A DNA stretch of 64,000 nt, from IMG/VR virus record IMGVR_UViG_3300046333_000120. One strand, 5' to 3'. The stretch is from a virus. Positions 12,225-64,000 of the stretch are shown here, in pieces. The position numbers and the translations under genes were made by a program. The notes beneath the pieces were generated by a model. It ran no database searches, had not been told where the DNA came from, and worked only from the letters and a program-made list of their open reading frames with translations. The first letter of the stretch is position 1; every line of letters starts with the position of its first letter.

Positions 12225-12701
12225 ATGGCAAATATTAAATCATTTGAAGCCTTTGTTAACGAAATGGACAGAGCAGAGGAAATAGAAACTAAATTAAATG
12301 CAGTTGGAGAACCTGATGAAAAGGATGTAGAAGAAACTGAAGAAGAAGCTGAAGAAGTCCAAGAAGCTGAAGGAGTTACTCCAATTGGAATTAAAGAACC
12401 TGATGCAAACAAACAAAAGCTTCCAGTATATGCAATGCTAGAAAAATGTTATGAAGAAGTTATCGATGAAGCCAAAGTATGGGAATCTGATGCGCATGAC
12501 GATCATACGATAGAAACATATATGGCTGAAAATTCTGCATTAGTTGCAAAAATGGCAGTAGAAGCACTTACTGAAATGAAAGGTGATATGCAAACTGAAG
12601 CATTTGAAGCATGTTTAAATAAAATGTCAGAGGCTTATGCTAAAAAAATAAATGAGTGTAAAGACACTAAGGATGCAATAGATGCAGAGGATGTAGCATA
12701 A
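12225..12701 (+). CDS. Acidic putative internal head protein
   Basis: MANIKSFEAFVNE leader; Glu-rich; GATATATAA upstream. Confidence 0.6.
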   Translation: MANIKSFEAFVNEMDRAEEIETKLNAVGEPDEKDVEETEEEAEEVQEAEGVTPIGIKEPDANKQKLPVYAMLEKCYEEVIDEAKVWESDAHDDHTIETYMAENSALVAKMAVEALTEMKGDMQTEAFEACLNKMSEAYAKKINECKDTKDAIDAEDVA

Positions 12702-23259: not shown

Positions 23260-24450
23260 ATGTCAAAAACACAGTTAGTAACAGAAGGAATTATTGGATT
23301 TGATTGGGATGCACATTTAGCAGATTGTCCATCATCATATAAAAGACCAAATTCACATGTAAAAACAAATGATGGTCACAAAGTTTATTCTAGAGAACCT
23401 TATGCTCAAGAACTTTATGATTTAATGGAAAACTCATTTTCACAAACGCCACATGTATTTGCTGTAAATGTTGGAGAAACATATACTGGTAAAGTATATT
23501 CAGTTGATACTGAATGGGCATCTATTGACGTAGGTCATAGAGAAATGGTATATGTGAATATGTCCAGAGAATCAGATATTTCAAAATCAAAATTAGTACC
23601 AGGTACTGAAGTATCTGTTGAAATTACAGGAGATAGAAATATTAAAGGGTTTGTTATTGGATCTGTTGAAGCTGGAATTAAAGCGGCAATTCTTAGAGAA
23701 ATTTTAGCATCAATCGAAGGTGGAAACACCGCGTATATTGGAACAGTAACTGGAATGATTCCAAACGGTGGATATTTCGTAAATGTGCAAGGTGTGGATT
23801 GTTTTATGCCAGGTTCACTTGCAGGAATTAATAAACTTGCGGAATTTGAGTCTATTCTAAATACACAAATGTATGTTGTTCCTATGAGTTATTCTCCTGA
23901 AAGAGGAACTGTAATTGTTTCGCATAGAAAATATTTACAAGCAATGATTCCTAGTAGAGTAGAAGAACTTAGAAATAATATTGGAGAAACAAAAACAGGT
24001 AATGTTACTGGTTCTGCTAAATATGGTGTATTTGTTGAGTTTGATGGATGTTTAACTGGAATGATTCATGCAAATGATTTAACATCAGAAATGGCCAAGA
24101 AACATAAGTCTAGAGAAATACTGCCTGGTGATGAAATTGAATTTAAAGTTAAAGAAATTATTAGTGATACTAAAATTACTTTAACCCAATTAGAGTATGC
24201 TGAAACAGTAGATCCATGGAAAGAAATTGCAGGAAAATATAAATCATTTCCAACAGAAGTACAAGGTTCTATTAAGTCAGTTAAAGACTATGGAGTATTT
24301 GTTGATATTGGAGATGGAATTGTAGGGTTATTACATGTATCTGAATTACCAGAAGGAATGGAAGTTGAATCTCTTACTAAAAATAGTCCAATTACAGTAC
24401 AAGTTACACGAATTGATATTGACACACGAAAAGTTTTCTTAAAACTATAG
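23260..24450 (+). CDS. rpsA: Ribosomal protein bS1-like protein (about 4 S1 domains)
   Basis: Tandem S1 repeats: GKVYSV..ASIDVG; GGYFVNVQGVDCFMPGS; KYGVFVEFDG.LTGMIH; DPW..DYGVFVDIGDGIVGLLHVSEL. Confidence 0.85.
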   Translation: MSKTQLVTEGIIGFDWDAHLADCPSSYKRPNSHVKTNDGHKVYSREPYAQELYDLMENSFSQTPHVFAVNVGETYTGKVYSVDTEWASIDVGHREMVYVNMSRESDISKSKLVPGTEVSVEITGDRNIKGFVIGSVEAGIKAAILREILASIEGGNTAYIGTVTGMIPNGGYFVNVQGVDCFMPGSLAGINKLAEFESILNTQMYVVPMSYSPERGTVIVSHRKYLQAMIPSRVEELRNNIGETKTGNVTGSAKYGVFVEFDGCLTGMIHANDLTSEMAKKHKSREILPGDEIEFKVKEIISDTKITLTQLEYAETVDPWKEIAGKYKSFPTEVQGSIKSVKDYGVFVDIGDGIVGLLHVSELPEGMEVESLTKNSPITVQVTRIDIDTRKVFLKL

Positions 24451-24546: not shown

Positions 24547-25350
24547 ATGAACAAGCTTAAGACATACTCTCAATTTTTAAACGAATCAAAACAAAATAAT
24601 ATAGTTAATGTTATTTTAGATGCACTAGAACCTACTATTGTTGAAATGGTATCTTCTACTGAAAAATGGTTTGTTGAAACATTTAAACAAGAATTTACTA
24701 AGTATGATAGAGAAATGGCAAGGCTTAATCTAATTTTTGATATGGTAAAAGCTATCGAAACATATACTCTTCCAACAGATTCGTTGATTTCATTGAATGT
24801 TAGTAAAAGTGCTAAAGGAAATATTCAAATAGATGCCCAAATTCAAAGAGGAGAAACTACTTATAGTTTTTTAACAGAAGCAATTTATACAGGAGGACAT
24901 AATATCCAAGTACTTCATTATAGATATATTGTTAAAACTAATCTTCCAAAAAATGGAGCTACTGAAATTACTAAAGAGTATGCCGACAAAATTAAGAAAA
25001 TGTCAAAGCTTGAAAAGTTAAATAAAGAAATAAATAGCTACACTATACGTATTAAAAATGCTGAAGAAAAGGTTGAAACTAATTCTAAAGTAACGGATGA
25101 AGAAATATTAAAAATCTTAAAATCTAGAGAAGATTGGAAAGAATCTCCAACATGGGAAGAGATAATCCGAAGAGATGCTGCTAAAAATTATAATAACGAT
25201 GAAGCGCACTACTACCAAGAACAAGAAAGATATTTAAATTCTAGAATAGAACACTGGAAATATCTAAATGTAAATTCAAATAAATCATGGTTAGTAGGAG
25301 CAGCAAAGGAACTTAAAAAACTACAATCTAAATTAGATTCATTGGTATAA
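24547..25350 (+). CDS. Hypothetical protein with capsid-targeting-like leader
   Basis: MNKLKTYSQFLNES. Confidence 0.65.
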   Translation: MNKLKTYSQFLNESKQNNIVNVILDALEPTIVEMVSSTEKWFVETFKQEFTKYDREMARLNLIFDMVKAIETYTLPTDSLISLNVSKSAKGNIQIDAQIQRGETTYSFLTEAIYTGGHNIQVLHYRYIVKTNLPKNGATEITKEYADKIKKMSKLEKLNKEINSYTIRIKNAEEKVETNSKVTDEEILKILKSREDWKESPTWEEIIRRDAAKNYNNDEAHYYQEQERYLNSRIEHWKYLNVNSNKSWLVGAAKELKKLQSKLDSLV

Positions 25351-25397: not shown

Positions 25398-26690
25398 ATG
25401 AATAATCTAAATGATGCAAATATTTTACAGAATGCTTTAGTAGGTGTTGAATTTGAATTTTATTCAAATTTATCAGCTGAAGAAACTGCAGATCAAATTG
25501 CAAAAATGCTTGGCAAAAAAATTCACGTTGAGAAGAAAGCGCATAGCGATTTTGAAGTAACTCGGGATGAATTTAAAATAGAACCTGATATGTCAGGTGG
25601 CGCTAAACTATTAGAATTAGTTACAGGTGCACTTCCTTACTTTGCTGCAAGATTAATGATAATTAAAGTATGTGATTGGATTGAAAAGAATGGATATACA
25701 AATGATCGTTCATCAATTCACTTAAATCTTTCTTTTGATAAATCTAAGATAGAGAATAAATATAGAATCTCTAAAATGAATACTCTTAAATTCATTTTAG
25801 ATTTTAATGAAGAGCAGGTGTTTAAATTCTTTCCAAAGAGAGAAAATTCAGCATATGCAAAATCAATTAAATTTGTTTTACCTAAAGAAGATACTTATTT
25901 CTTTGATGGTAAATATATCAATCAACAAAACTTTATATTTCCAGATACTAAATATTATGGTATCAATTTCGAAAAGAGACATAAAAATTATCTTGAATTT
26001 AGATATGTTGGCGGTGCAGATTGGGAAAAGAAAACAACTACAATTTTACATCTAGTCGATAGTTTTTTATTACAAGTATGGAAATCAACTGAAAATACTG
26101 AATTCTCAGGATTAAATGCAATCGAACTTAAAAAAATAATTTCTAAAAATCAAAGAATAATTGATGCAAGAAAGAATTGGAAAACAATACAAGATAATTG
26201 GAATGATGTTAAATTTACAGTTGATTTAAAGGATGATCCTAAAGTAGTAGATCTTTATTGGCCTAGTGTTAAAGAACGTGTTATGAAATTATTTACGCAT
26301 GGTACTTTAACAAAAGGACATGTCAATTACGATTCAGACAGTGGCAGAATTCAAGTAGCTAATGGTAAATTAGAGTACTGTGTAGATTTACATGGATATG
26401 AATTTATTGGTTGTTTCTTAAGAGGAGAATTTTCAGAATGTGATATGTATGGATGTGATATACATGGATCTGATATACACTACTGTAATTTCTATTCAAG
26501 TACTCAAATAAATTCAAGTAAATTAGATTCATCATATGTGCATGGTTCATGCGTTACGTCAGATTGCTATGTATATGGAAAAGGAATATTTAAAGGTACT
26601 ATGAATGGCGGTATTTTTAGAGAAGGTAGTTATGATAAAAAACTTGCAAAATTTAATGATGTTGAAATCATTAAATATAAATTAATATAA
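25398..26690 (+). CDS. Putative amidoligase (COOH-NH2 ligase-like) with C-terminal beta-helix-like region
   Basis: GVEFEF, PDMS, LELVT, SIHLN, LEFR motifs; Cys/Ser-rich short repeats at the C-terminus. Confidence 0.6.
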   Translation: MNNLNDANILQNALVGVEFEFYSNLSAEETADQIAKMLGKKIHVEKKAHSDFEVTRDEFKIEPDMSGGAKLLELVTGALPYFAARLMIIKVCDWIEKNGYTNDRSSIHLNLSFDKSKIENKYRISKMNTLKFILDFNEEQVFKFFPKRENSAYAKSIKFVLPKEDTYFFDGKYINQQNFIFPDTKYYGINFEKRHKNYLEFRYVGGADWEKKTTTILHLVDSFLLQVWKSTENTEFSGLNAIELKKIISKNQRIIDARKNWKTIQDNWNDVKFTVDLKDDPKVVDLYWPSVKERVMKLFTHGTLTKGHVNYDSDSGRIQVANGKLEYCVDLHGYEFIGCFLRGEFSECDMYGCDIHGSDIHYCNFYSSTQINSSKLDSSYVHGSCVTSDCYVYGKGIFKGTMNGGIFREGSYDKKLAKFNDVEIIKYKLI

Positions 26691-52785: not shown

Positions 52786-52843
52786 GGGTATCAGTATATA
52801 ATTAACAAATTAAAGTATTAACAAAAATTAAAGTATTTAAGAC

Positions 52844-53761
52844 ATGGCAGAATTTGACATTTTTAACTTAGGTGTAGCAGATGTAGACACACATGAAACA
52901 CAAGCTTCTTCAGGAAGTGACCTTTACAAACCAACAGCAGACGATGGTAAAGACGGAACTTACAAAGCAATTATTCGTTTTGTTCCAAACCCATCAAATC
53001 CCCGAAACTCTTTAGTAAAAAAATACGTACACTGGCTTACAAACGCAGGCGGTGATGGTAAAATGGTAGATTCCCCTTCAACAGTAGGAGAAAAATGCCC
53101 AATAGCTGATGTATTTTTTAAATTACGTAAAAGTGATTCAGCAGTTGATCGTAAAATGAGTGATAAACTTAAAAGACGTGAGCAGTACTTTGCTCTAGTT
53201 AAAGTTATTAAAGATCCTCAAAACCCAGATTTAGAAGGACAATACAAAATCTTCAAATTTGGTTATAAAATCAAAGAAAAAATTGACGAAGAATTGAAAC
53301 CAGCGTTTGGTGAACCAACTCAAGTATTTGACCTATTTGCAGGTAAAAACTTTGAATTGATTATATCAAGACAAGGAGATTTCAATAACTACGATAAATC
53401 AAAATTCTCATCTTCAACCAGTGCTATTGACATGGCAGGTTCTCCAGCAGAAAGAACTAAAGAAGTTATGACAACAATCAAAACTGAATTGGATGCTGCA
53501 CCTTCATTAGAACCTTACGAGTACAAAACATGGGATGAAGAAACCAGAGATTTTGTTAATAATATCTTAAGAAATTATTTAAATCCAGGTGATTCAATGG
53601 ACTCTGTTATTTCAAAACCAGCAGCTAAAAAACCAGCAGCTAAAACTGAAAGTGCAAATACATCAAGTGACTTTGAATTTCCAAGCGAAATGACTTCAAG
53701 TCCAAATTCTGCAAGTGATGCAGATGATTTAGATGATTTTCTAAATGATTTAGGAGTTTAA
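52844..53761 (+). CDS. Single-stranded DNA-binding protein, T4 gp32-like
   Basis: AIIRFVP, CPI, VIKDPQNPDLEG..IFKFGYKI, FDLF.GKNF.L, NYD.SKF, acidic tail DDLDDFLNDL. Confidence 0.92.
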   Translation: MAEFDIFNLGVADVDTHETQASSGSDLYKPTADDGKDGTYKAIIRFVPNPSNPRNSLVKKYVHWLTNAGGDGKMVDSPSTVGEKCPIADVFFKLRKSDSAVDRKMSDKLKRREQYFALVKVIKDPQNPDLEGQYKIFKFGYKIKEKIDEELKPAFGEPTQVFDLFAGKNFELIISRQGDFNNYDKSKFSSSTSAIDMAGSPAERTKEVMTTIKTELDAAPSLEPYEYKTWDEETRDFVNNILRNYLNPGDSMDSVISKPAAKKPAAKTESANTSSDFEFPSEMTSSPNSASDADDLDDFLNDLGV

Positions 53762-53781
53762 TCTTAAAATATAGTTAAATT

Positions 53782-53823
53782 AAATGGGTCAGGTGTAAAC
53801 TTGACCCATTTTTTATATATAAT
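53782..53823 (+). terminator. Intrinsic terminator after SSB overlapping TAAAC-N17-TATAAT promoter
   Basis: AAATGGGTCA/TGACCCATTT stem plus T-run; TAAAC at 53796, TATAAT at 53818. Confidence 0.7.
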
Positions 53824-53828
53824 ATTAT

Positions 53829-54953
53829 ATGACAAGCCCAAAAATTACAGAAGAATTAAAATCAAAGATACGAAGTTTAGTTAAAGAAGCGATTGTTAAA
53901 GCCCATAATGAACCTTCTAAACATATGCTTAAGGAAATGCCAGGTAGGATTACAATGGCATGTCCATTTTGTGGTGATTCCAGTTCTGACCATAAGAAGA
54001 AGAGAGGTAATTTATACTGGGACACTCTACAATATCATTGTTTTAATTGTGGTACTCACTCGAATGCATACCAATTACTTAAGGAACATCATGTAAAATT
54101 TAAAAATACAGACGATTCAATCCAGGTTATTGATTACATTCAAGAACATAAGATGGAAACAAATCATATTGAAGTCTTAGAACATGACGTATTTAAATTA
54201 GCATATGATTTATCTCCAACAAGAACAGAACTTAAACAATGGTTTGACTTTTATGAAATACAACCAGGAGATCCTGCATTTTTCTATTTAAGAAATAGAT
54301 TACTATCTTCAAAATTAGATAGGTTTATGTATTCGCCAAAGGATAAAAGAATTGTAGTTCTTAATCTTGCACCAAAGGATAAAGTTATTGGATTTCAAAC
54401 GCGCTCACTTATTAAAAAAGCAAATTCAAGATATTTAACATATGACCTTGAAAAAATATATGAAGAGGCAGGAAAGGAACTTGTAATATCTGAAGAAGAA
54501 TTAGTAAGTGTTAAAAAGGTTTCGACATTATTTAATGTAATGATGGTTGATTTCGAAAGAGAAGTAACTATGTTTGAAGGACCTATTGACTCAATGTTTA
54601 TACCAAACTCTATTGGACTTGCAACCGCAGGTAGATCTACAGAGGAATTCGATGAAATTCCAACTATTAGATATATGTTCGATAATGATGTTACTGGTAA
54701 AAAGAAGATGATGGAAAAATTAAAAAGAGGTAGAAAGATATTTATATGGGAAAAATTCTTAAAAGAAACATCAATTGAAAAGGATTGGGATAATTTCCTT
54801 AAAAATATTGATAAAAATAATAGAGATAAATATCCTAAACAAATAGGTGATTTAAACGATTTGGTTATTGCGGCGTGGCTAACTAAGAATAAATGTTTAA
54901 GCAAATTGATGGATTATTTTACTAACTCTAAACTTGATGCATATCACTTATGA
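53829..54953 (+). CDS. DNA primase, T4 gp61-like
   Basis: CPFCGDS..KKRG..HCFNC Zn finger; TOPRIM FEGPIDS, FDND. Confidence 0.9.
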   Translation: MTSPKITEELKSKIRSLVKEAIVKAHNEPSKHMLKEMPGRITMACPFCGDSSSDHKKKRGNLYWDTLQYHCFNCGTHSNAYQLLKEHHVKFKNTDDSIQVIDYIQEHKMETNHIEVLEHDVFKLAYDLSPTRTELKQWFDFYEIQPGDPAFFYLRNRLLSSKLDRFMYSPKDKRIVVLNLAPKDKVIGFQTRSLIKKANSRYLTYDLEKIYEEAGKELVISEEELVSVKKVSTLFNVMMVDFEREVTMFEGPIDSMFIPNSIGLATAGRSTEEFDEIPTIRYMFDNDVTGKKKMMEKLKRGRKIFIWEKFLKETSIEKDWDNFLKNIDKNNRDKYPKQIGDLNDLVIAAWLTKNKCLSKLMDYFTNSKLDAYHL

Positions 54954-55168
54954 TAAAAAAAGAATTTTTACAAATGATCGAAGAGCAATTCGAGGACTTT
55001 GAAAATGAGAGAAGTAAAAGAAAAAATCTAAAACTAATTATAGATTTTACATCCACTAGTATCTCACACGAAGGCAAGGAATTTACAATAACAAAACCAA
55101 AACTTAAGGCTAAGTTTAATAGTTCAGTGTATATTAAAGACAATAAAAAAGGAACCTCATTATTTTAA
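54950..55168 (+). CDS. Hypothetical protein
   Basis: ATGA-coupled to primase. Confidence 0.6.
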   Translation: MIKKEFLQMIEEQFEDFENERSKRKNLKLIIDFTSTSISHEGKEFTITKPKLKAKFNSSVYIKDNKKGTSLF

Positions 55169-55179
55169 ATAAGACTAAT

Positions 55180-55608
55180 ATGTCAGAAACAATTGATAAA
55201 ATACAACAGTTAGATGATTACTTAAGTAAACAAAGAACTGACTGGACTTCTAAAATAAAGGCATTGACTGAACAATTAAAGTTAGGTAATAATTTAGAAG
55301 AGGTTAGTGCATATACATTAAGTTACCGCCAAATATTAGTAGAACATTTGGCTACTATGGGAAATCGCATTAAATCGCAAAAGGCAACTGTAGATAAAAG
55401 GTATAGAGATAAATGGATCGAATACTTTAGTTATGATTATAAGCTTACCGATAAAATGCGCGAAAAATTTGTTGAAGCTGATATTTCAGACGATACACAA
55501 ATCCTTGAGTTATTAATTACTCAAAAAGGGTTTATTGAGGGATCAGTAAAAACACTTGATAATATGGGCTTTGCAATAAAGAATCGCCTAGATATTTCAA
55601 AGCTCTAG
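55180..55608 (+). CDS. uvsY: UvsY-like recombination mediator
   Basis: Helical 142 aa upstream of UvsW; C-terminal GFAIKNR matches the UvsY pattern. Confidence 0.6.
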   Translation: MSETIDKIQQLDDYLSKQRTDWTSKIKALTEQLKLGNNLEEVSAYTLSYRQILVEHLATMGNRIKSQKATVDKRYRDKWIEYFSYDYKLTDKMREKFVEADISDDTQILELLITQKGFIEGSVKTLDNMGFAIKNRLDISKL

Positions 55609-55633
55609 GGCTTAAAAAAGATCATAATGAGAT

Positions 55634-57142
55634 TTGATTTTAACATTAACGGAAGACAATCAATTTTTAAGAATTGATGAATCAACTGAACTTGAGTTAG
55701 AGCAGATTAGAATTTCTTTAACAAAACGTATTGACTCTTGGAGATTTAATCCTTTAGTCAAACGAGGTGTGTGGGATGGTTATGTAACATATATTAAAGA
55801 TGATAAATGGATTCCTGCAGGTCTATGGCGATATGTCATGGGAATATGTAAAGACTATAGATTTGAATTAAAAATTAATGGAATCAAACGATTAATAGAT
55901 CCAAATATAAATGCAGAAACATTCGAAACATGGGCATATGGCCTATTTGAAGGTTCTAAGATAACTCCAAGGGATTACCAAGTAGATGCTGCATATAATA
56001 TATTAAAATTTAGAAAGTGTCTTGCTGAACTCGCAACATCAGCAGGTAAGACCCTAATTAGTTTTCTTACAATATCTTATATGCTAGAAAAAGGAACAGC
56101 ATCTAAGATATTATTTATAGTACCAAACGTTTCGCTAGTAGTACAAGCACATGAGGATTTTCATGACTATAACTTTAAAAATAGAATTGACTTAAGAATT
56201 CAACAAATTTTTGCAGGACAAAAGATCAAATCTAATAAGAATATAGTTATTGGTACTTACCAATCGTTAATCAAAAAGGATAAAGAATATTTTGAACAAT
56301 TCGATGCAGTAATTGTAGATGAAACACATAAGGCAAAATCAGCAAGTATTAAAACGATTTTACAAAAATGTACTAATGCTAAATATAGATTTGGTCTTTC
56401 AGGTACAATTCCAAAGGATGGAACTTTAGACAAATTAACATTAATGAGTCAAACTGGTCCTGTAATTGCAGAAGTTAAAGCAAGTTTTTTACAAAAAGAA
56501 GGACACATTGCCAAATGTGCAGTTAAAGTAATTGAAATGGATTATGCAACTGACAAGCAAAAAACAGCATTAATGGAATTAGCTCAAAATAAATATGAGA
56601 ATAAAGATGTATTTGCACTAGAACAAAACTTTGTTATAAATAATGCAGCACGACTTGATTTTATTTCAAATGTAATAGGTAGAGTACCAAAGAATAGTTT
56701 AGTACTTTTTCATAGAATAGAGCATGGTCAAAGGCTTTATGAAAAACTTAGGCAAGAAACTAATAAGAGAGTATTTTATGTAGACGGTGGAACTGCAACT
56801 GATATTAGAGAGGAATACAAAAAGAAAATGGAATCCGGAGAAGAAATTGTTATTGTTGCAAGTTATGGAACCTTTTCAACAGGTATATCAATTAAGAAAA
56901 TTCATAATATATTTTTTACAGAATCTTTTAAATCTGAAGTGATAATTAGACAATCAATTGGACGTGGACTTAGACAACATGAATCAAAGGACAAGGTATT
57001 AATTGTAGATTTTGTGGATAATATTAGAACAGTAGAATGGGATAATTATTTGTATAGACATGGCAAAGCAAGACAAGCAATATACAAACAAGAGAAATTT
57101 GAATACACCATAAAGAAAGTCAATTTTGAAGGAGATATATAA
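55634..57142 (+). CDS. uvsW: SF2 DNA helicase UvsW
   Basis: WDG, PRDYQ, TSAGKT, VDETH, GLSGT, SYGTFSTG, QSIGRGLR; TTG start. Confidence 0.92.
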   Translation: MILTLTEDNQFLRIDESTELELEQIRISLTKRIDSWRFNPLVKRGVWDGYVTYIKDDKWIPAGLWRYVMGICKDYRFELKINGIKRLIDPNINAETFETWAYGLFEGSKITPRDYQVDAAYNILKFRKCLAELATSAGKTLISFLTISYMLEKGTASKILFIVPNVSLVVQAHEDFHDYNFKNRIDLRIQQIFAGQKIKSNKNIVIGTYQSLIKKDKEYFEQFDAVIVDETHKAKSASIKTILQKCTNAKYRFGLSGTIPKDGTLDKLTLMSQTGPVIAEVKASFLQKEGHIAKCAVKVIEMDYATDKQKTALMELAQNKYENKDVFALEQNFVINNAARLDFISNVIGRVPKNSLVLFHRIEHGQRLYEKLRQETNKRVFYVDGGTATDIREEYKKKMESGEEIVIVASYGTFSTGISIKKIHNIFFTESFKSEVIIRQSIGRGLRQHESKDKVLIVDFVDNIRTVEWDNYLYRHGKARQAIYKQEKFEYTIKKVNFEGDI

Positions 57143-57174
57143 ATATAATAACGTAATAAAAAAACAAATTAAAA

Positions 57175-59124
57175 ATGGCAGAAGTTAATAGAATCTCATC
57201 ATTTAAAAGTTTTTCAGAGATTAAATCTCAAGAAAATGAAACTAAATTAAGAGAAGAAAACAATCTAAAGAAACAAGAAACACTATCTAAAATTGAAGAA
57301 ATTTTAGATGAGATGGGATTAACAAATCTATCTGAAATCGATGAAGATTCTCAGACAGCTTTCATATCTAAATTGTTAGGTAAAGAAACGAATGAAGGTA
57401 ATGCATTTGTATATGCTGCAGGTAAAGCTAAGGCAGATGGGAAAAAAGAATTTGAATTTAATGGTAAAACTTATAAAGTAACTATTAAAGACACTGGCAT
57501 CAAAGAAGATAATGAGATTATCGATGAAGCAATTAGCAGAAGTATATATGATAGAATGGATGGACTTCACAATATTAAAGCTATGAAATCTTTAATTGAT
57601 TCTGCGAAGACTATCTTTGATGATTTATCTGAAGAAATGTTTGAATTTGATGAAATCTGTGATTTCATTGTAATGAAAATAAAGAAAAGTAAATTAGCAG
57701 GAATGTATGAATCTGTAAATGAAGCAAGAATTAAAGCTCCTACTGCACTTCAAGAAATTATTGATGGCAATACATCAAGAGCTGAAGGTATTAAATTATC
57801 AAAACCAATGGCTGAACATATATTGAATTGGATTAATACATCAGCGTATGGTAAAAAGTATGGCAAAGATTTACCGTTAAACATGGTTATTAAGGCTTCA
57901 TTTAGTTGGGGTATTGAAAGAGGTTTAGATCCTAAATTGAAATCTGAATTAGATACATTAAAAGATAGTATTAAAGAATCTGTAATCAATGAAGCCAAAG
58001 TTAAGCAATTTGATGCTGACTTTAATGACATGGTTAAAAATATCAAATCAGGTTATGGTTGGATTGATCCAGAATATGTCGCAGATACTTGGGAAAATTC
58101 AAGTGACTCTGTTGATTTTGAATTAGTTAAAGGAGAAATCTACAAAAGATTAATTGCAGCAGGTTTATTAGCATATCCAAATCCAGATGATGAAGAAAAG
58201 AAAGGTGTGCCTGTTAGAAAATTGCAAGAACTTGGTATTAAAGAATCTATTACAAACGAAGCAACTGTTGAAGTAGATGCAACAGATCCTAAAGATAAAA
58301 ACCTTGCAAAACTATTAAAGAAACATAAAGTTTCGTTGGAAGTAATCAATAAAAATGGACCATCCGGATGGCCTGAAGTTAAATTAACAGGAGATATTAA
58401 AGATCTTAAAGCAGTTTTAGCAGATTCTGAATATGGATGGGATGATGAAGGCTTAGCAGATTATATTGAAGAATCAGTAGTTAATGAAGCTGAGAAATTT
58501 AAAAGTACTAAAGACTTTGAAGATTTCTTAGAAGAAATTGATGGTATGCCAGAGAACAGAATCAAAAGAATCATGGGTAAAGATTATATCGATACTCCAG
58601 GTGGATATAGAGATGAAGCTGATGATTATGATAACGATATTACAGAATACATGATTTCTAACATGGGTAAATCTGATTTTAATGAACTTAAAACATGGTG
58701 GGAAACCAATGTTGCTGAATCATTTATTAGTGAATCAAGTATGGGAGAAATCGATCAAATGGCACAAGATGCTAAAGATTTCAAATCATTTGTAAAAGAA
58801 TTTACAAAAAAATACCATGATTTATCCAATACAGGAGAACCTGGACAATTTAAAGAATGGTTACAATCTGCTTATGATGCAGCAAAAGAAAACATGGATG
58901 AATCATCAGTTACTGAAGCTGAAGTTAGTTCTGATGATGAATTTAAAGAATATGCAATGGCTGTTTTGAAAAAAGCATTTGGAGAAGACTTTGATGAAGC
59001 TAAGGCTGGTGAAGTAGTTGATGGAATTCTTAAAAAATGTGATGGAGACTATGGCGCATGTGTTGGAATGCTAACAAGTTCTCTTGGAGAATCGAATGAT
59101 ACCACATCATCTCAAGAATCTTAA
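57175..59124 (+). CDS. Putative packaged polyprotein of small modules joined by ES-x-x-NEA linkers
   Basis: SSFKSFSE leader; linkers ETNEG, EIIDEA, ESVNEA, ESVINEA, ESITNEA, ESVVNEA, ESFISES, ESSVTEA. Confidence 0.7.
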   Translation: MAEVNRISSFKSFSEIKSQENETKLREENNLKKQETLSKIEEILDEMGLTNLSEIDEDSQTAFISKLLGKETNEGNAFVYAAGKAKADGKKEFEFNGKTYKVTIKDTGIKEDNEIIDEAISRSIYDRMDGLHNIKAMKSLIDSAKTIFDDLSEEMFEFDEICDFIVMKIKKSKLAGMYESVNEARIKAPTALQEIIDGNTSRAEGIKLSKPMAEHILNWINTSAYGKKYGKDLPLNMVIKASFSWGIERGLDPKLKSELDTLKDSIKESVINEAKVKQFDADFNDMVKNIKSGYGWIDPEYVADTWENSSDSVDFELVKGEIYKRLIAAGLLAYPNPDDEEKKGVPVRKLQELGIKESITNEATVEVDATDPKDKNLAKLLKKHKVSLEVINKNGPSGWPEVKLTGDIKDLKAVLADSEYGWDDEGLADYIEESVVNEAEKFKSTKDFEDFLEEIDGMPENRIKRIMGKDYIDTPGGYRDEADDYDNDITEYMISNMGKSDFNELKTWWETNVAESFISESSMGEIDQMAQDAKDFKSFVKEFTKKYHDLSNTGEPGQFKEWLQSAYDAAKENMDESSVTEAEVSSDDEFKEYAMAVLKKAFGEDFDEAKAGEVVDGILKKCDGDYGACVGMLTSSLGESNDTTSSQES

Positions 59125-59140
59125 AATAATTTGAATAAAT

Positions 59141-59190
59141 AATATGACCTGGATTTTTTCTAGGTCATATTTTTTTATTATATTTACAAT
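59141..59190 (+). terminator. Terminator hairpin fused to TATATTTACA promoter-like motif
   Basis: AATATGACCT/AGGTCATATT stem, T-run, then TATATTTACA as in the repeat modules. Confidence 0.6.
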
Positions 59191-60477
59191 ATGAAATCAA
59201 AAATCCTTAATTTTAATCAGTTTTTAACTGAAAAATACGAAGTAAGATTAAATGAACAACTCCTATTAGAAGGAGGTGCTGCAGGACATATGTCTCATCC
59301 ATTTGATGAAAGAGACCTTACATTTAGTGACTTTAAGAAAATAATCGAAGCAGGTCTTTCGGGAGATTTAACATTTGAAGAAGATCCAACTGAAAAAACA
59401 GATGGACAGAATGTCTTTGCTACTGTCCAAGATGGTCAAGTTAAATTTGCAAGAAATAAAACTGAACTTAAGAATCCAATGGATCTTAATACATTTAAAC
59501 AGAAATTTACAGGACATCCAAGCAAAATGGTTGAAGAGACATTTCAATTTGCTGCAGAAGATTTAGCACATGCACTTATTAAATTGTCAGCCAAAGATTT
59601 AGAAGCATTTGATAATGGTAAGAATTTCATGAATATGGAGCTTATATATTCTAAGAATCCTAATGTTATTTATTACGATAGAGACATCATACAGTTTCAT
59701 GGGATTAAAATAACTGACGGTGAGGGTAATATTATCGGAGATGATAATAAATATGCTAGATCTATTGCAAAGGCCTTAGAAGATGTCAAGGCACACATAG
59801 GAAAGGTATTTACTATTATTCCTCCACAAATTATCAAGATAGGTAAGGATATAGATTTTAATATTAATAAATCCAAATTTATTAAAAAGGTAGAAGACTT
59901 AAAGAATCGTTATAAATTAACAGATGCCGATGAGGTTTCTAAATATCATGAAATGTGGTGGAGAGAATTAATAGACCAAAATTTCCCAGATTTAACACAG
60001 GATTTTAAAGAAGGTTTATTATTAAGATGGGCATATGATGATAAGAAAACTCTTAATTTAAGAAGTTTAGATAAAGAACTTGGAAAAGATAAAGCAGAAC
60101 TTATTAAGAAGTTTGATAAAGAAGATGTTAAAAAGAAATATAAAGAAAACATTAGACCATTTGAGGATTTATTTCTTGAATTAGGAAGTGTTATCTTAAA
60201 GAATGCAAGTAACTTTGTTGCTGCAAACCCAAAGGCAGAAATGCAAAGATTACATACCCAGATTAGAACAGAAGCTGAAAATATTAAATTGAATGGTGAT
60301 ACTGCTCAAATTGATAAAGTAATGTCAGAGCTTGAAAGACTTGATAGAATTGGAGGTATTGAATCAATTATTCCTACTGAAGGTATTGTATTTGTTTACA
60401 AAGGAAAAACTATGAAACTTACAGGTACATTTGCTGCCATCAATCAATTAATGGGTATCATTAAGTATGGTAGATAA
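59191..60477 (+). CDS. Leader-bearing ATP-dependent ligase-fold nucleotidyltransferase
   Basis: ILNFNQFLTE leader, LLE/GGAAGHM, motif I EKTDG, motif III MELIY, motif IV EGIVF, motif V MKL. Confidence 0.65.
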   Translation: MKSKILNFNQFLTEKYEVRLNEQLLLEGGAAGHMSHPFDERDLTFSDFKKIIEAGLSGDLTFEEDPTEKTDGQNVFATVQDGQVKFARNKTELKNPMDLNTFKQKFTGHPSKMVEETFQFAAEDLAHALIKLSAKDLEAFDNGKNFMNMELIYSKNPNVIYYDRDIIQFHGIKITDGEGNIIGDDNKYARSIAKALEDVKAHIGKVFTIIPPQIIKIGKDIDFNINKSKFIKKVEDLKNRYKLTDADEVSKYHEMWWRELIDQNFPDLTQDFKEGLLLRWAYDDKKTLNLRSLDKELGKDKAELIKKFDKEDVKKKYKENIRPFEDLFLELGSVILKNASNFVAANPKAEMQRLHTQIRTEAENIKLNGDTAQIDKVMSELERLDRIGGIESIIPTEGIVFVYKGKTMKLTGTFAAINQLMGIIKYGR

Positions 60478-60495
60478 ATAAAATAAATAATAGAC

Positions 60496-60813
60496 ATGAA
60501 ATATACACAAGCGTTTGAATCATTTATTAATGAAGCTACTGATAAACCAACTTTAGATTCTTCAACTGGATTAATCTATTACTTCGATATTCCTTTCACA
60601 TCAGAAGATATGGAAGAATTATTAAGTGCAAGTAAAATGGTATTAAATGGAAAATTTACTCCAAATAAACAGTTTGAAATCCAACCGATGATTTTTATTA
60701 AAGATAAAGTTAATGGTGGAGAACATACATTTAGTGTTACACAAATTGGATTATTAGGCTCTTTTTATAATAAGAACAAAGACAGTGTTGCATCTAGATC
60801 AGATTTCAATTAA
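60496..60813 (+). CDS. Small protein with capsid-targeting-like leader
   Basis: MKYTQAFESFINEA. Confidence 0.65.
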   Translation: MKYTQAFESFINEATDKPTLDSSTGLIYYFDIPFTSEDMEELLSASKMVLNGKFTPNKQFEIQPMIFIKDKVNGGEHTFSVTQIGLLGSFYNKNKDSVASRSDFN

Positions 60814-60828
60814 TATAATTTAATAAAA

Positions 60829-62724
60829 ATGGCATTACAAAAATTAAGAGAGTATTTTAACGAAACCAATAGAGAAAATTTTATTGAAATGTTAAAAAGT
60901 AGGGTGTTAGTGACTGAAAAGATTGCAGCACCATCTTTTCTTTTTAAAAGAAATACAGATGGATTTGAGTTTTATAAGTCTTCAACATCAGATAAATTAA
61001 ATTTTATTGATAGAACAGTTATATCACTATATGAAATGGCAATTAATCATTTACAGAGTTTACCAAGCGATGTAAAATCTCAGTTTCCATTAGATTGGAA
61101 ATTTGGATTTGAATATTTACCAGAAACCAAAGCGTCTAATATAGATTATGCCACAACTCCAACCAATAGTTTAATTCTTACACACATTCAACAATTGAGT
61201 GAAGGTGGAAAACTTAGAAAAACTATTAATGATCCATTAATTTTAAATAAATGGGCTAAATTATTAGAAGTGCAATCTCCCAGTGTTATTTTTGATGGTT
61301 ATATGTCACAACAACAAAGAGATGAACTTCTAACCGTATTATCAATGAGTGATAGAGAATTCTCAGATTCATTTGATTACGCAATAGAAACTGAAGATAA
61401 AACAAGTTTCACTTCAAAGATATTTAAGATGTTTAATCCAAATATCTATTCAACTGCACTAAATCCAGATCTTGAAACTGAAATTGATGGATTAGTTATA
61501 AACTTCATAGAAGCAAAAACAATGAAGTCATTTAAACTTGAAGATTTTTTAAGAGCTTCCGCTGATAAAAGAGATTTAAGAGCTTCTAGCCATACTTACC
61601 AAATTGCTGTAACTGATTTCTTAGAGTATATCATACAGCAAGATCTGAACGATATTAATTTAGAAGATGAACATGCCGATCATAGATACTTAGAATTAAT
61701 GTCAGTTTTATTTAATGGATATATTGATAAAAATTCTTCAAAATATATTGGTGTTAATTTTGAAAGTGCAGAATTTTCAGAAGCACAATCATTTAGATTA
61801 AATACCAAATATATTAAAAATGAAAAAACATTAAAATTTGTAAATAATGAAGTACTTGCTGAATTATTTAAAATGGTTTTAAGTTCTTTTAGAAAGAAAA
61901 GAACTAAAGAATCAGACTTAATTGACAAAGATACAATGTCAAGAATGAATGAAATTATTGATGCAATTAATGAAAAGATATTTGTAGAAAATACAGATGA
62001 AAATGCAATATACGATTATACTAATTTTATGTTACATAATAAGATTAAATCTTCAGTAAATTTAAATGAAGCTCTTACAGTAAAACACATGGAACAAGGT
62101 AAACAACCCGTAAATATGTTTGTTGGTAGATTTCAACCATTCACATTAGGGCACGCTAAGGTATTAGAAACAATGAATAAGGAAAATGGATTTCCAGTAG
62201 TTGTATTTTTAGTTAAATCTAAGGTTAAAAAGGGCGAGGAGTTTAGTAAACCATACGATGAAAAAACACAAGTTGATATGTTTAATCATGTCAAAAAACA
62301 ATATCCTTTTTTAAAGGAAATATATGTTGTTCCTAATGCTGCAATCGATACATTATATAATGAGATGAGACCGAAATATGAACCAGTATTATGGGGAACA
62401 GGATCTGATAGAATGAAAGGATATGGATATATGGTTAATAATGATTCTTATAGAGACCAATTAAATGCTAGGGCAGATTTTGGATTATTTGAGATTCCAA
62501 GAACAGACGATAATATTTCAGCAACCAAGGTTAGAAACGCAATGTTAGATGGAAATGAAAAAGATTTTCAGACAATGACACCTAAAGCTATTCATGGAAT
62601 GTATAAAGAATTAAAGTCAAAATTAGAAGATGCTATTGGAGTTGTTCACGAAAATATTGAAAATTCAGAAGAAATCATGACATTTGAACAATTCATAAAT
62701 AAATCTAAATATATAATCTTATAA
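60829..62724 (+). CDS. Fusion of degenerate ligase-fold domain and HxGH cytidylyltransferase-like nucleotidyltransferase
   Basis: N-part VTEKI..FEYL..IDGLVI..FKL; LNEA linker; GRFQPFTLGH, GSDR, ISATKVR. Confidence 0.7.
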   Translation: MALQKLREYFNETNRENFIEMLKSRVLVTEKIAAPSFLFKRNTDGFEFYKSSTSDKLNFIDRTVISLYEMAINHLQSLPSDVKSQFPLDWKFGFEYLPETKASNIDYATTPTNSLILTHIQQLSEGGKLRKTINDPLILNKWAKLLEVQSPSVIFDGYMSQQQRDELLTVLSMSDREFSDSFDYAIETEDKTSFTSKIFKMFNPNIYSTALNPDLETEIDGLVINFIEAKTMKSFKLEDFLRASADKRDLRASSHTYQIAVTDFLEYIIQQDLNDINLEDEHADHRYLELMSVLFNGYIDKNSSKYIGVNFESAEFSEAQSFRLNTKYIKNEKTLKFVNNEVLAELFKMVLSSFRKKRTKESDLIDKDTMSRMNEIIDAINEKIFVENTDENAIYDYTNFMLHNKIKSSVNLNEALTVKHMEQGKQPVNMFVGRFQPFTLGHAKVLETMNKENGFPVVVFLVKSKVKKGEEFSKPYDEKTQVDMFNHVKKQYPFLKEIYVVPNAAIDTLYNEMRPKYEPVLWGTGSDRMKGYGYMVNNDSYRDQLNARADFGLFEIPRTDDNISATKVRNAMLDGNEKDFQTMTPKAIHGMYKELKSKLEDAIGVVHENIENSEEIMTFEQFINKSKYIIL

Positions 62725-62740
62725 AATAAAATTAAAATAA

Positions 62741-64000
62741 ATGAGCACATTTGATAAATATCTAAATGACATGAATAATACGTTAAATGAGAGGTCAATT
62801 AACAAAATTCAAGCAGAATTTACAGATGTAGTAACTAAAATGTCAGCAATGGCAAAAGAATATGCTACTACAGAAGGAGATGAAAAAACAAATATTCTTA
62901 CAGAATTAAAAGGATTAACTGCAAAGAAAAATGAGTTAATAAAGGAACTCGATAATGCAGTAGCAGGAAAGGATAAAGATGTCCAATTAGCTATTAAAGA
63001 ATCTGAAATTAATGAAGCATATGGAAGCTCTAATCCTCATGCAAAACCAGCGGGTCTTGATAAAGAAGAAACTATGGTTATAGCTCAAAAATTTGCAGAT
63101 GCAATGTCTAAAGCAGAAGGAGCTAAAGTTACTGTAAATAAAAGAACATTAGAGGAAGATTCATTTGATTTAGATTACAATGGAGAAGAATTTGATGGAG
63201 GTTCATATAACATCTACCAAAATGGAAATGTTATGAATATGGCATTAAGAGATAATCCAGTATATGGTAGAAAAAACGATAGTGTAGATACTATTGCAAA
63301 GAATATGAAAAAATTCATGAGCGAATCAGTAGCTAATGAAGGTAGACATATTACTCTTAAAAGACAATACACTGGAAACCATCCTGCAACCACCGTTGGA
63401 AAAATTGCAGCTGTTAGAAATAAAGTGTTAGAGGCAATTAAAGATGGTAAAATACCACAAGAACAATTTGAAAAAATAGTTTCTGAAATTTCTAATAACT
63501 CTAAAAGATGGACAAAAAATAACTCAAAATATTTTACAATATCAGAAGACGGTGTTTCACTTTCTGGTTTTGGTAAAAAAGTACTTTCAAGTATAACAGT
63601 TAATGAAGCAGATTTTAAAGAATTTCCAAAAGGTTATAATCCAGAAATATGGGTACCTGGTAATTTTGATAAAGCTATTTCCAAATATTCAAATGCAAAA
63701 TTAACTAGAAAAATTGTATTGGATGCTGCTAAAAAATGGGATGTTACACCCGAAGATGCTATTAATTATGTAGAATTTGGATGGCATGTAGATTTATCAG
63801 AAAATATAAATATAAATATAAATATGAAAACAAAATTTATTTACGAATCATTTAGCGAATTCATTGGAGCTTTAAATGAATCTAATGAAATATTAAATGA
63901 AGCATTTGCTTCTACAAAACTTGCAAGTCTTTTAACAGGCGCAAATGCAATGCCAAAGGATCTTCCTGCTGCATTCTATAATATGTCAAAATTAGCTCTT
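62741..64000 (+). CDS. Second putative packaged polyprotein (runs off the window; not in ORF track)
   Basis: Open for 420 codons: MSTFDKYLN..TLNE, ESEINEA, ESVANEG, ITVNEA, then internal MKTKFIYESFSEFIGALNESNEILNEA. Confidence 0.75.
   Translation, partial: MSTFDKYLNDMNNTLNERSINKIQAEFTDVVTKMSAMAKEYATTEGDEKTNILTELKGLTAKKNELIKELDNAVAGKDKDVQLAIKESEINEAYGSSNPHAKPAGLDKEETMVIAQKFADAMSKAEGAKVTVNKRTLEEDSFDLDYNGEEFDGGSYNIYQNGNVMNMALRDNPVYGRKNDSVDTIAKNMKKFMSESVANEGRHITLKRQYTGNHPATTVGKIAAVRNKVLEAIKDGKIPQEQFEKIVSEISNNSKRWTKNNSKYFTISEDGVSLSGFGKKVLSSITVNEADFKEFPKGYNPEIWVPGNFDKAISKYSNAKLTRKIVLDAAKKWDVTPEDAINYVEFGWHVDLSENINININMKTKFIYESFSEFIGALNESNEILNEAFASTKLASLLTGANAMPKDLPAAFYNMSKLAL

Follow-up and report, generated by a model that had tools for sequence, protein, structure and literature searches.

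Linkers resembling head-protease sites are breakpoints of module exchange in two polyproteins of an uncultured T4-like phage

The DNA analysed here, a stretch of 64,000 nucleotides (nt) from IMG/VR virus record IMGVR_UViG_3300046333_000120 (hereafter the window), is phage DNA of 29.8% G+C, whose genes include a gp32-type single-strand-binding protein, a UvsW-like helicase and baseplate genes. Its source is an uncultured large T4-like aquatic phage. Towards the right end lie two open reading frames (ORFs), 57175-59124 and 62741-64000, whose products we call polyproteins 1 and 2, and in which modules alternate with short recurring linkers (Table 1). The modules of polyprotein 1 are 61-109 amino acids (aa) long and mostly acidic, with an isoelectric point (pI) of 4-5, while full-length copies of polyprotein 2 in relatives measure 764-982 aa.

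A first-pass annotation of this DNA had reported a repeat at 57970, 58237 and 62993. Searching the window for the pattern ATTAAAGAATCT-N6-AAYGAAGC (26 bases), we found three exact matches, all on the + strand (57970-57995, 58237-58262 and 62993-63018), and a fourth copy with two mismatches at 58465-58490. As 100 dinucleotide-preserving shuffles gave no match at all, the repeat stands far above chance. The copies at 57970, 58237 and 58465 lie in polyprotein 1 and the copy at 62993 in polyprotein 2. Every one of them is in frame and encodes IKES-xx-NE↓A, or IEES-xx-NE↓A at 58465, where the arrow marks a predicted cutting site. The IKES form is one variant of a general linker made of a hydrophobic residue or Thr, then Asn, Thr or Ser, then Glu, then Ala, Gly or Ser, often preceded by Glu-Ser. 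Its consensus is (I/x)(K/E)ES-x-x-(N/T)E↓(A/G/S), and about 14 strict sites are spread over both polyproteins. The peptide [ILVTAFM]-N-E-[AGS] occurs five times in each polyprotein ORF versus about nine times in total in the other 69 ORFs, and in 120 family members the density of the linker motif is 0.84 per 100 aa, that is five-fold the 0.17 expected from composition. The repeat is a recurring peptide motif, and its excess at the DNA level is small.

No match to polyprotein 1 was found with tblastn in 50,697 deposited phage genomes. Many homologues are present in IMG/VR and in metagenome contigs from lakes and seas, at 30-34% G+C. A protein search returned at least 557 of them (395-1116 aa), none with a Pfam domain or an informative name. 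Since the longest related contigs reach 236 kb with an estimated completeness of 77%, these phages would be roughly 300 kb in size. One contig, L001, is 88% identical to the window in nucleotides. The protein search also yielded L163, and a metagenome scan brought no relative closer than those in the set. In the literature, we found no published description of such module-string polyproteins.

We then compared the window with L163, which is 98.1-98.7% identical in DNA to window positions 52827-64000 in all flanking sequence (11 kb). Five module-sized indels separate the two, all of them within the two polyproteins, and four of the five have junctions inside linkers, including those at 58465 and 62993, with linkers making up about 3% of the stretch. 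The F module (82 codons) is missing from L163, where a single linker matches both window linkers 58465 and 58711 over 25 nt. An extra G module is found in L163 at window linker 58894, and a 201-nt (67-codon) module is inserted exactly at window linker 62993. L163 also carries an extra C-terminal module, whose junction at 59098-59112 is no clean linker-to-linker join. Two of the four pattern copies (58465 and 62993) are thus junctions of very recent events.

Across the family, we mapped 58 distinct junctions in the DNA of 15 members and compared their positions with the expectation from linker coverage. Strict 27-nt linkers held 45 of the 58, versus 5.7 expected, and the other 13 fell at looser x-x-E↓G/A sites. 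This test replaced an earlier one at the protein level, in which breakpoints were taken from the fuzzy ends of BLASTP high-scoring segment pairs and showed a 2-3-fold enrichment. The flanking genes are syntenic and free of large indels, with 74-98% aa identity across the closer relatives. Some modules have changed gene. The F module is part of polyprotein 1 in the window, L005 and L020, and part of polyprotein 2 in L001, L002 and L003. Between the window and L001 its DNA identity (89%) equals that of the backbone (88%), and homology stops at the linkers on both sides. Likewise, the D module is found at the start of polyprotein 2 in the window and in L001-L003, but inside polyprotein 1 in L005, L007, L011, L016, L017 and L020. 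At linker 4, the homology blocks of the window and L001 overlap by 8 nt.

To classify the modules, we redid a clustering in which single linkage had merged unrelated modules via their common linkers, this time with a stricter coverage rule. The 120 homologues showed 85 architectures and 72 module clusters, with up to 20 different left neighbours per module. Double linkers enclosing mini-segments of five residues (e.g. …NE↓SVVNE↓A) are common in relatives. The linkers are real breakpoints of in-frame gain, loss and relocation of modules, within and between polyproteins. The suggestion of the first-pass annotation that they act as cassette-shuffling sites therefore holds, and the check it proposed, whether indel breakpoints in related genomes fall within linkers, came out positive.

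Table 1. Positions of the polyproteins, their linkers and associated features in the window
Feature	Position	Strand	Remark
T4-type late-promoter-like motif TATAAATA	57138..57145	+	30 nt upstream of polyprotein 1 start
Polyprotein 1 (649 aa)	57175..59124	+	conserved N-terminal leader region, then about 8 modules, mostly acidic
Linker 1 (…KETNE↓G)	57373..57399	+	
Linker 2 (…YESVNE↓A)	57700..57726	+	
Linker 3 (IKESVINE↓A)	57970..57996	+	first exact pattern copy; junction in family comparisons
Linker 4 (IKESITNE↓A)	58237..58263	+	second exact pattern copy; extra module in L001 here
Linker 5 (IEESVVNE↓A)	58465..58491	+	two-mismatch copy; left junction of F module
F module (82 aa)	58489..58734	+	absent from 98%-identical L163
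Linker 6 (…AESFISE↓S)	58711..58737	+	right junction of F module
Linker 7 (…DESSVTE↓A)	58894..58920	+	extra G module in L163 here
Leader of small stand-alone gene	60496..60537	+	ends ESFINE↓A, same motif as linkers
Polyprotein 2	62741..64000	+	open at window end; leader and D module first
Linker (IKESEINE↓A)	62993..63019	+	third exact pattern copy; L163 insertion point
Linker (…SESVANE↓G)	63317..63343	+	
Linker (…ITVNE↓A)	63584..63610	+	
Fossil gene junction in polyprotein 2	63805..63904	+	in frame; three overlapping TATAAATA, ATG at 63824, leader with two cleavage motifs

What the linker might do in the protein is suggested by the head-maturation protease of T4, gp21, which cuts after L/I-X-E and was first recognised to act at a Glu-Ala bond, and by the T4 capsid-targeting sequence, which consists of the first 10 residues of IPIII (both PMC9026906). 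At the 14 strict sites of the two polyproteins, the linker fits the gp21 rule, with a hydrophobic residue at P3, Glu at P1 and a small residue next. All five long related contigs, including that of L001, encode a Peptidase_S77 domain (the family of T4 gp21) that scores above the Pfam cut-off. The same ORF in these relatives also encodes a scaffold-like region, and two copies of the linker motif immediately follow the protease domain. In the Gp23-family major capsid protein, again from the relatives, the N-terminus reads MANLINE↓A, a seven-residue peptide that ends in the motif and precedes Ala. Small genes are arrayed downstream of polyprotein 2 in the relatives, and the product of each begins with a leader of about 13 residues that terminates in the motif (MKHIKLYEEFVNE↓A type). 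In the window itself, six ORFs carry leaders ending in the motif, as judged from sequence only, and the linker form ES-x-x-NE↓A corresponds to the C-terminal half of such leaders, for instance the one at 60496. The N-terminus of polyprotein 1 has 10 invariant positions within residues 5-20 among relatives.

Polyprotein 2 also contains a fossil gene junction. Its three TATAAATA motifs are read as Asn-Ile repeats, and the junction is kept in all relatives, with the Met lost in L003; it could be a working internal late promoter and start. Given the motif at the capsid protein N-terminus, after the protease and in the leaders, together with the gp21 rule and this fossil start, we read the linkers as remnants of leaders that serve as protease sites. 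The linker is most likely the cutting site predicted for a head-maturation protease of the T4 gp21 type, derived from the C-terminal half of a capsid-targeting leader. Alternatively, the linkers could stay uncleaved as mere flexible spacers between the domains of large virion or scaffold proteins, their likeness to a protease motif being a coincidence. Such a role agrees with the acidic and largely helical nature of the chain, in which it resembles scaffold or core proteins. However, a spacer would require neither the invariant Glu and small residue nor the five-fold enrichment of the motif, and would not account for the same motif at the capsid protein, after the protease domain and at the leader ends of small genes, so that we consider this explanation very improbable.

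As for the copy of TATAAATA upstream of polyprotein 1, its position is suggestive at most. We rejected it as proof of late expression, since the motif is not enriched in the AT-rich window (16 found versus 23 expected).

We predicted the structure of polyprotein 1 with AlphaFold2 from an alignment of 15 sequences. The model is multi-domain and of moderate confidence, with a mean predicted local distance difference test (pLDDT) score of 59.8 and a predicted template modelling (pTM) score of 0.28. Cut sites are predicted at residues 74, 183, 273, 362, 438, 520 and 581, and the segments with pLDDT below 50 are 67-80, 102-185, 268-274, 357-372, 431-440, 514-534 and 569-582. Hence, six of the seven cut sites lie in discrete dips of pLDDT and the remaining one, at 183, closes the long low-confidence stretch 102-185, whereas the modules between cut sites reach 70-90. 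The polyproteins are most likely beads-on-a-string chains of small, separately folding and mostly unrelated modules.

Similarity searches gave little on the modules. Pfam detected no domain in polyprotein 1 or 2, and neither Pfam nor PHROGs assigned them to a family of known function, with one weak PHROG of unknown function for polyprotein 1. Residues 274-438 of polyprotein 1 had no usable match in the ESM Atlas, and a Foldseek search of the whole-chain model against PDB and BFVD returned nothing below E=0.01, a result that at a pTM of 0.28 has little bearing on the folds of the modules. A local Foldseek match of 61 residues to an uncharacterised phage protein of 79 aa shows just that modules also occur as small stand-alone genes. 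Widely distributed, the C-terminal module of polyprotein 1 (58918-59121) is also found at the end of extremely acidic phage proteins of 460-620 aa, a family encoded on marine IMG/VR contigs of 31-33% G+C (L029-L062). Internal leader-like segments (…RIMSFANFVTE↓A) as well as short tandem repeats occur in these proteins, so that the same building principle is present in a different phage group.

On these grounds, we think it rather probable that protease-site linkers string capsid-cargo modules together, that the modules shuffle as cassettes at the linkers, and that the identity of the linker DNA is mainly a by-product. Two late genes would concatenate small modules by one type of linker. The leader would carry the single translation product into the prohead, where the protease would cut the chain into many small proteins. 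With the same short in-frame element bounding every module, any linker-to-linker join would give a functional product. In wild populations, cassettes are gained, lost, exchanged for others and passed from one polyprotein to the other with linkers as junctions, and an established arrangement could become more widespread when ordinary homologous recombination takes place in the conserved modules beside it. Within this scheme, the data show the motif and its enrichment, the build of the chains from modules, the position of junctions in linkers and the relocation of modules from gene to gene, and we infer cleavage, packaging and the molecular pathway of recombination.

Several observations weigh against this reading. 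Neither the protease nor the capsid gene was found in the 64-kb window; both come from related contigs. The modules are acidic, unlike the basic T4 internal proteins, which leaves room for a role as scaffold or core filler. No module has a function recognisable with Pfam, PHROGs, the ESM Atlas or Foldseek. Finally, the linker DNA shows slightly more identity than its peptides call for. When the 14 linker peptides were re-encoded in 5000 rounds of simulation, mean pairwise identity was 13.05-13.16 of 27 nt (+/- 0.3), versus 13.98 observed (P ~0.002), and four linker pairs shared an exact run of at least 12 nt, versus 0.8-0.9 in the simulation (P ~0.01). Moreover, 10 of 14 distinct family instances, many of them orthologues, have the same IKES 12-mer. 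A role of the linker at the DNA level would be compatible with this small surplus.

Linker DNA was also assessed by three other measures. First, given the peptide IKES-xx-NEA and the codon usage of the window, the chance of the exact DNA pattern is 0.089 per copy. The three exact copies have the same codon at five of the seven conserved positions, versus 2.86 expected (P=0.077), and their Asn and Ala codons vary. Second, codon identity among all paralogous linkers was 1.24 times the expectation, about 1.3 standard deviations from random windows of the same genes (1.08 +/- 0.12). Third, the silent-site identity of orthologues was 0.62-0.82 in linkers versus 0.57-0.79 in module bodies. About 94% of the identity of linker DNA is thus a by-product of the peptide and of codon bias at 30% G+C. 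The surplus (about 0.9 nt per 27) is compatible with shared descent of linkers or with occasional exchange, and provides no evidence for selection on the DNA. The first-pass annotation had taken the linkers to be conserved as DNA repeats, for which we found little support. The comparison it proposed, of synonymous conservation with codon-bias expectation, gave a divided answer, as orthologous silent sites show no excess and the small surplus appears in the re-encoding simulation.

These figures bear directly on how modules are exchanged. The linker DNA might itself be the recombination substrate, with 12-26 nt of homology guiding in-frame crossovers much like PeSL or ip-leader sequences. The mapped junctions lie in linkers, where homology blocks overlap by 8-25 nt, and linker DNA identity does slightly exceed the codon-bias expectation. 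There is also a precedent, since T4-type phages contain PeSL elements of about 100 bp that recombine with excision of ORF cassettes, and variable IP loci are flanked by PeSL-like sequences (PMC2839356). However, exact runs are short, the longest between linker copies being 13 nt. In L163, the mapped crossovers lie in the last ~10 bases of the linker (codons x-(N/T)-E and the next small residue), with identity runs of 6-10 nt. The window copy at 62993 has all three variants of the left-hand L163 copy, so that, for a deletion there, the crossover would have lain at the very 3' end of the linker, by a 6-nt run and not by the longest run of 10 nt. Along with the unclean C-terminal junction, the silent sites of orthologous linkers, which are no more conserved than bodies, and a codon-identity ratio close to that of random windows, this makes us doubt that linker DNA is the substrate.

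Selection alone might also produce the pattern if joins arise anywhere by illegitimate recombination, if only joins with an intact frame, complete modules and a cleavage site survive, and if these then spread by flanking homologous recombination. Linker DNA identity is mostly explained by the peptide, and the double linkers with mini-segments look like tolerated imprecise joins. Furthermore, the R and A modules, located between the junctions mapped against L163, are about 95% identical between the window and L163, versus 98.6% for the rest of the gene, which suggests that a patch was replaced from a more distant donor by way of homology on either side. What random joins would not lead one to expect is that four of the five recent indels join cleanly, without scars, in the last ~10 nt of a linker. 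Selection as the sole explanation is possible, and we incline away from it. Probably both microhomology-guided recombination and selection-filtered illegitimate joining contribute.

A bolder proposal is that the linker is dual-purpose, serving as a protease site at the protein level and as a dedicated in-frame recombination junction at the DNA level, making the polyprotein resemble an integron within an ORF. Cassettes would then be taken up, cut out and transferred from gene to gene and from one co-infecting phage to another with the frame intact, and would need no promoter, start codon or targeting signal of their own. We put this forward tentatively and think it rather unlikely.

The fused protease ORF of the relatives (L075-L077) is 635-638 aa long and joins the prohead protease domain to a coiled-coil, repeat-rich, scaffold-like region of 450 residues, with cut motifs at the domain border and near the C-terminus. 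The leader-gene arrays of relatives (L001 16522-17483, L005 16613-18326 and L007 16735-18077) consist of 3-5 small genes directly after polyprotein 2 that share nearly the same 13-residue leader of MKHIKLYEEFVNE type, and much resemble a T-even ip locus. The window stops short of this region. Far from the polyproteins, window ORFs 12225-12701 (…FEAFVNE) and 24547-25350 (…YSQFLNE↓S) have leader-like N-termini, which makes the candidate capsid-targeted set span the window.

Between the two polyproteins lie two longer genes with leader-like N-termini. The first (59191-60477) encodes a protein of 428 aa with a ligase-type KxDG motif (EKTDGQN). The second (60829-62724) encodes a protein of 631 aa whose C-terminal half is a cytidylyltransferase-like HxGH nucleotidyltransferase (PF01467, PHROG 3041), with an internal linker motif (…VNLNE↓A) in front of it. 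Their products may be packaged RNA- or nucleotide-modifying enzymes. Elsewhere in the window, 23260-24450 encodes a phage protein with two S1 RNA-binding domains (Pfam PF00575, E=6e-26), and 25398-26690 an amidoligase-like protein, whose best relatives are in uncultured huge phages of 460-735 kb and in Agrobacterium phage Atu_ph07.

The closest parallel is with the internal proteins of T4, IPI, IPII, IPIII and Alt (PMC9026906, PMC3012670). As here, these have a short hydrophobic leader ending in (I/L/V)-x-E and followed by Ala, a protease of the gp21 family (found here in relatives), diverse and fast-evolving cargo, and small leader-bearing genes alongside. Unlike T4, the polyproteins have many predicted cargo modules in one ORF, with putative leader remnants as internal linkers. 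At P2 their motif favours Asn or Thr, and at P6-P5 it favours ES, and their modules are mostly acidic instead of basic. No homology to IPI, IPII, IPIII or Alt was found with Pfam, PHROGs or tblastn of the 50,697 phage records. Thus, the polyproteins appear to work like the T4 system without belonging to its protein families.

At the T-even ip loci, as described by Repoila et al. (1994) and relayed in PMC2839356 and PMC9026906, variable cargo also sits between conserved short sequences, and different phages have different cassettes at the same place. In those accounts, the cassettes are whole genes bounded by intergenic regulatory elements, whereas here they are parts of one ORF with a coding junction. 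The first-pass annotation had drawn an analogy with the T-even ip locus, which is upheld because the linker equals the C-terminal half of a T4-like capsid-targeting leader. The PeSL cassettes of T4-type phages (PMC2839356, PMC4122927) have similar features, in that short repeated elements lie on either side of small ORFan units and are the places to which indels and replacements between close relatives map. However, PeSLs are intergenic promoter-terminator elements of about 100 bp with demonstrated mini-circle intermediates, whereas the linkers are 27 nt of coding sequence, in which neither promoter hexamers nor a stem-loop were evident on reading the sequence without a formal scan.

In the giant phages phiKZ, 201phi2-1 and SPN3US (PMC5694885, PMC9026906), the head protease cuts after Glu in a three-residue motif, as predicted here, and some head or inner-body substrates of the phiKZ type have multiple sites, with products that are packaged or ejected. 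Their motifs are instead S/A/G-X-E or A-X-E, these proteins are not described as shuffled unrelated modules, and they have no homology with the polyproteins. Polyvalent proteins (Iyer et al. 2017, PMC5512222) also combine unrelated domains in one chain (2-15 of them) with a highly variable architecture, and their packaging and delivery to the host are predicted, as we propose here. They differ in having known effector domains (MuF, ART, MPTase, ParB-like and others) and a peptidase domain of their own. Neither Pfam nor the fold search of the whole-chain model found an effector domain of this kind in polyprotein 1 or 2, and cutting would here be done by the prohead protease at a standard linker.

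In T4, a ten-residue leader and a three-residue cut site suffice for any protein to be loaded into the capsid and delivered to the next host. In large aquatic T4-like phages, this loading idea seems to have been extended to a cassette system, in which one late gene would hold a changeable set of small proteins with the same cut site around each, and in which wild genomes that are 98% identical already differ in their cassettes. If cleavage and packaging are true, these polyproteins would be a natural viral example of evolution resembling exon shuffling, with junctions visible at base resolution, and a large set of unannotated proteins that are candidates for injection, the 120 genes comprising at least 72 module families. 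They would also offer a design rule for phage capsids with multiple cargoes, and whether coding microhomology or selection shapes the boundaries of modules would become testable in the laboratory.

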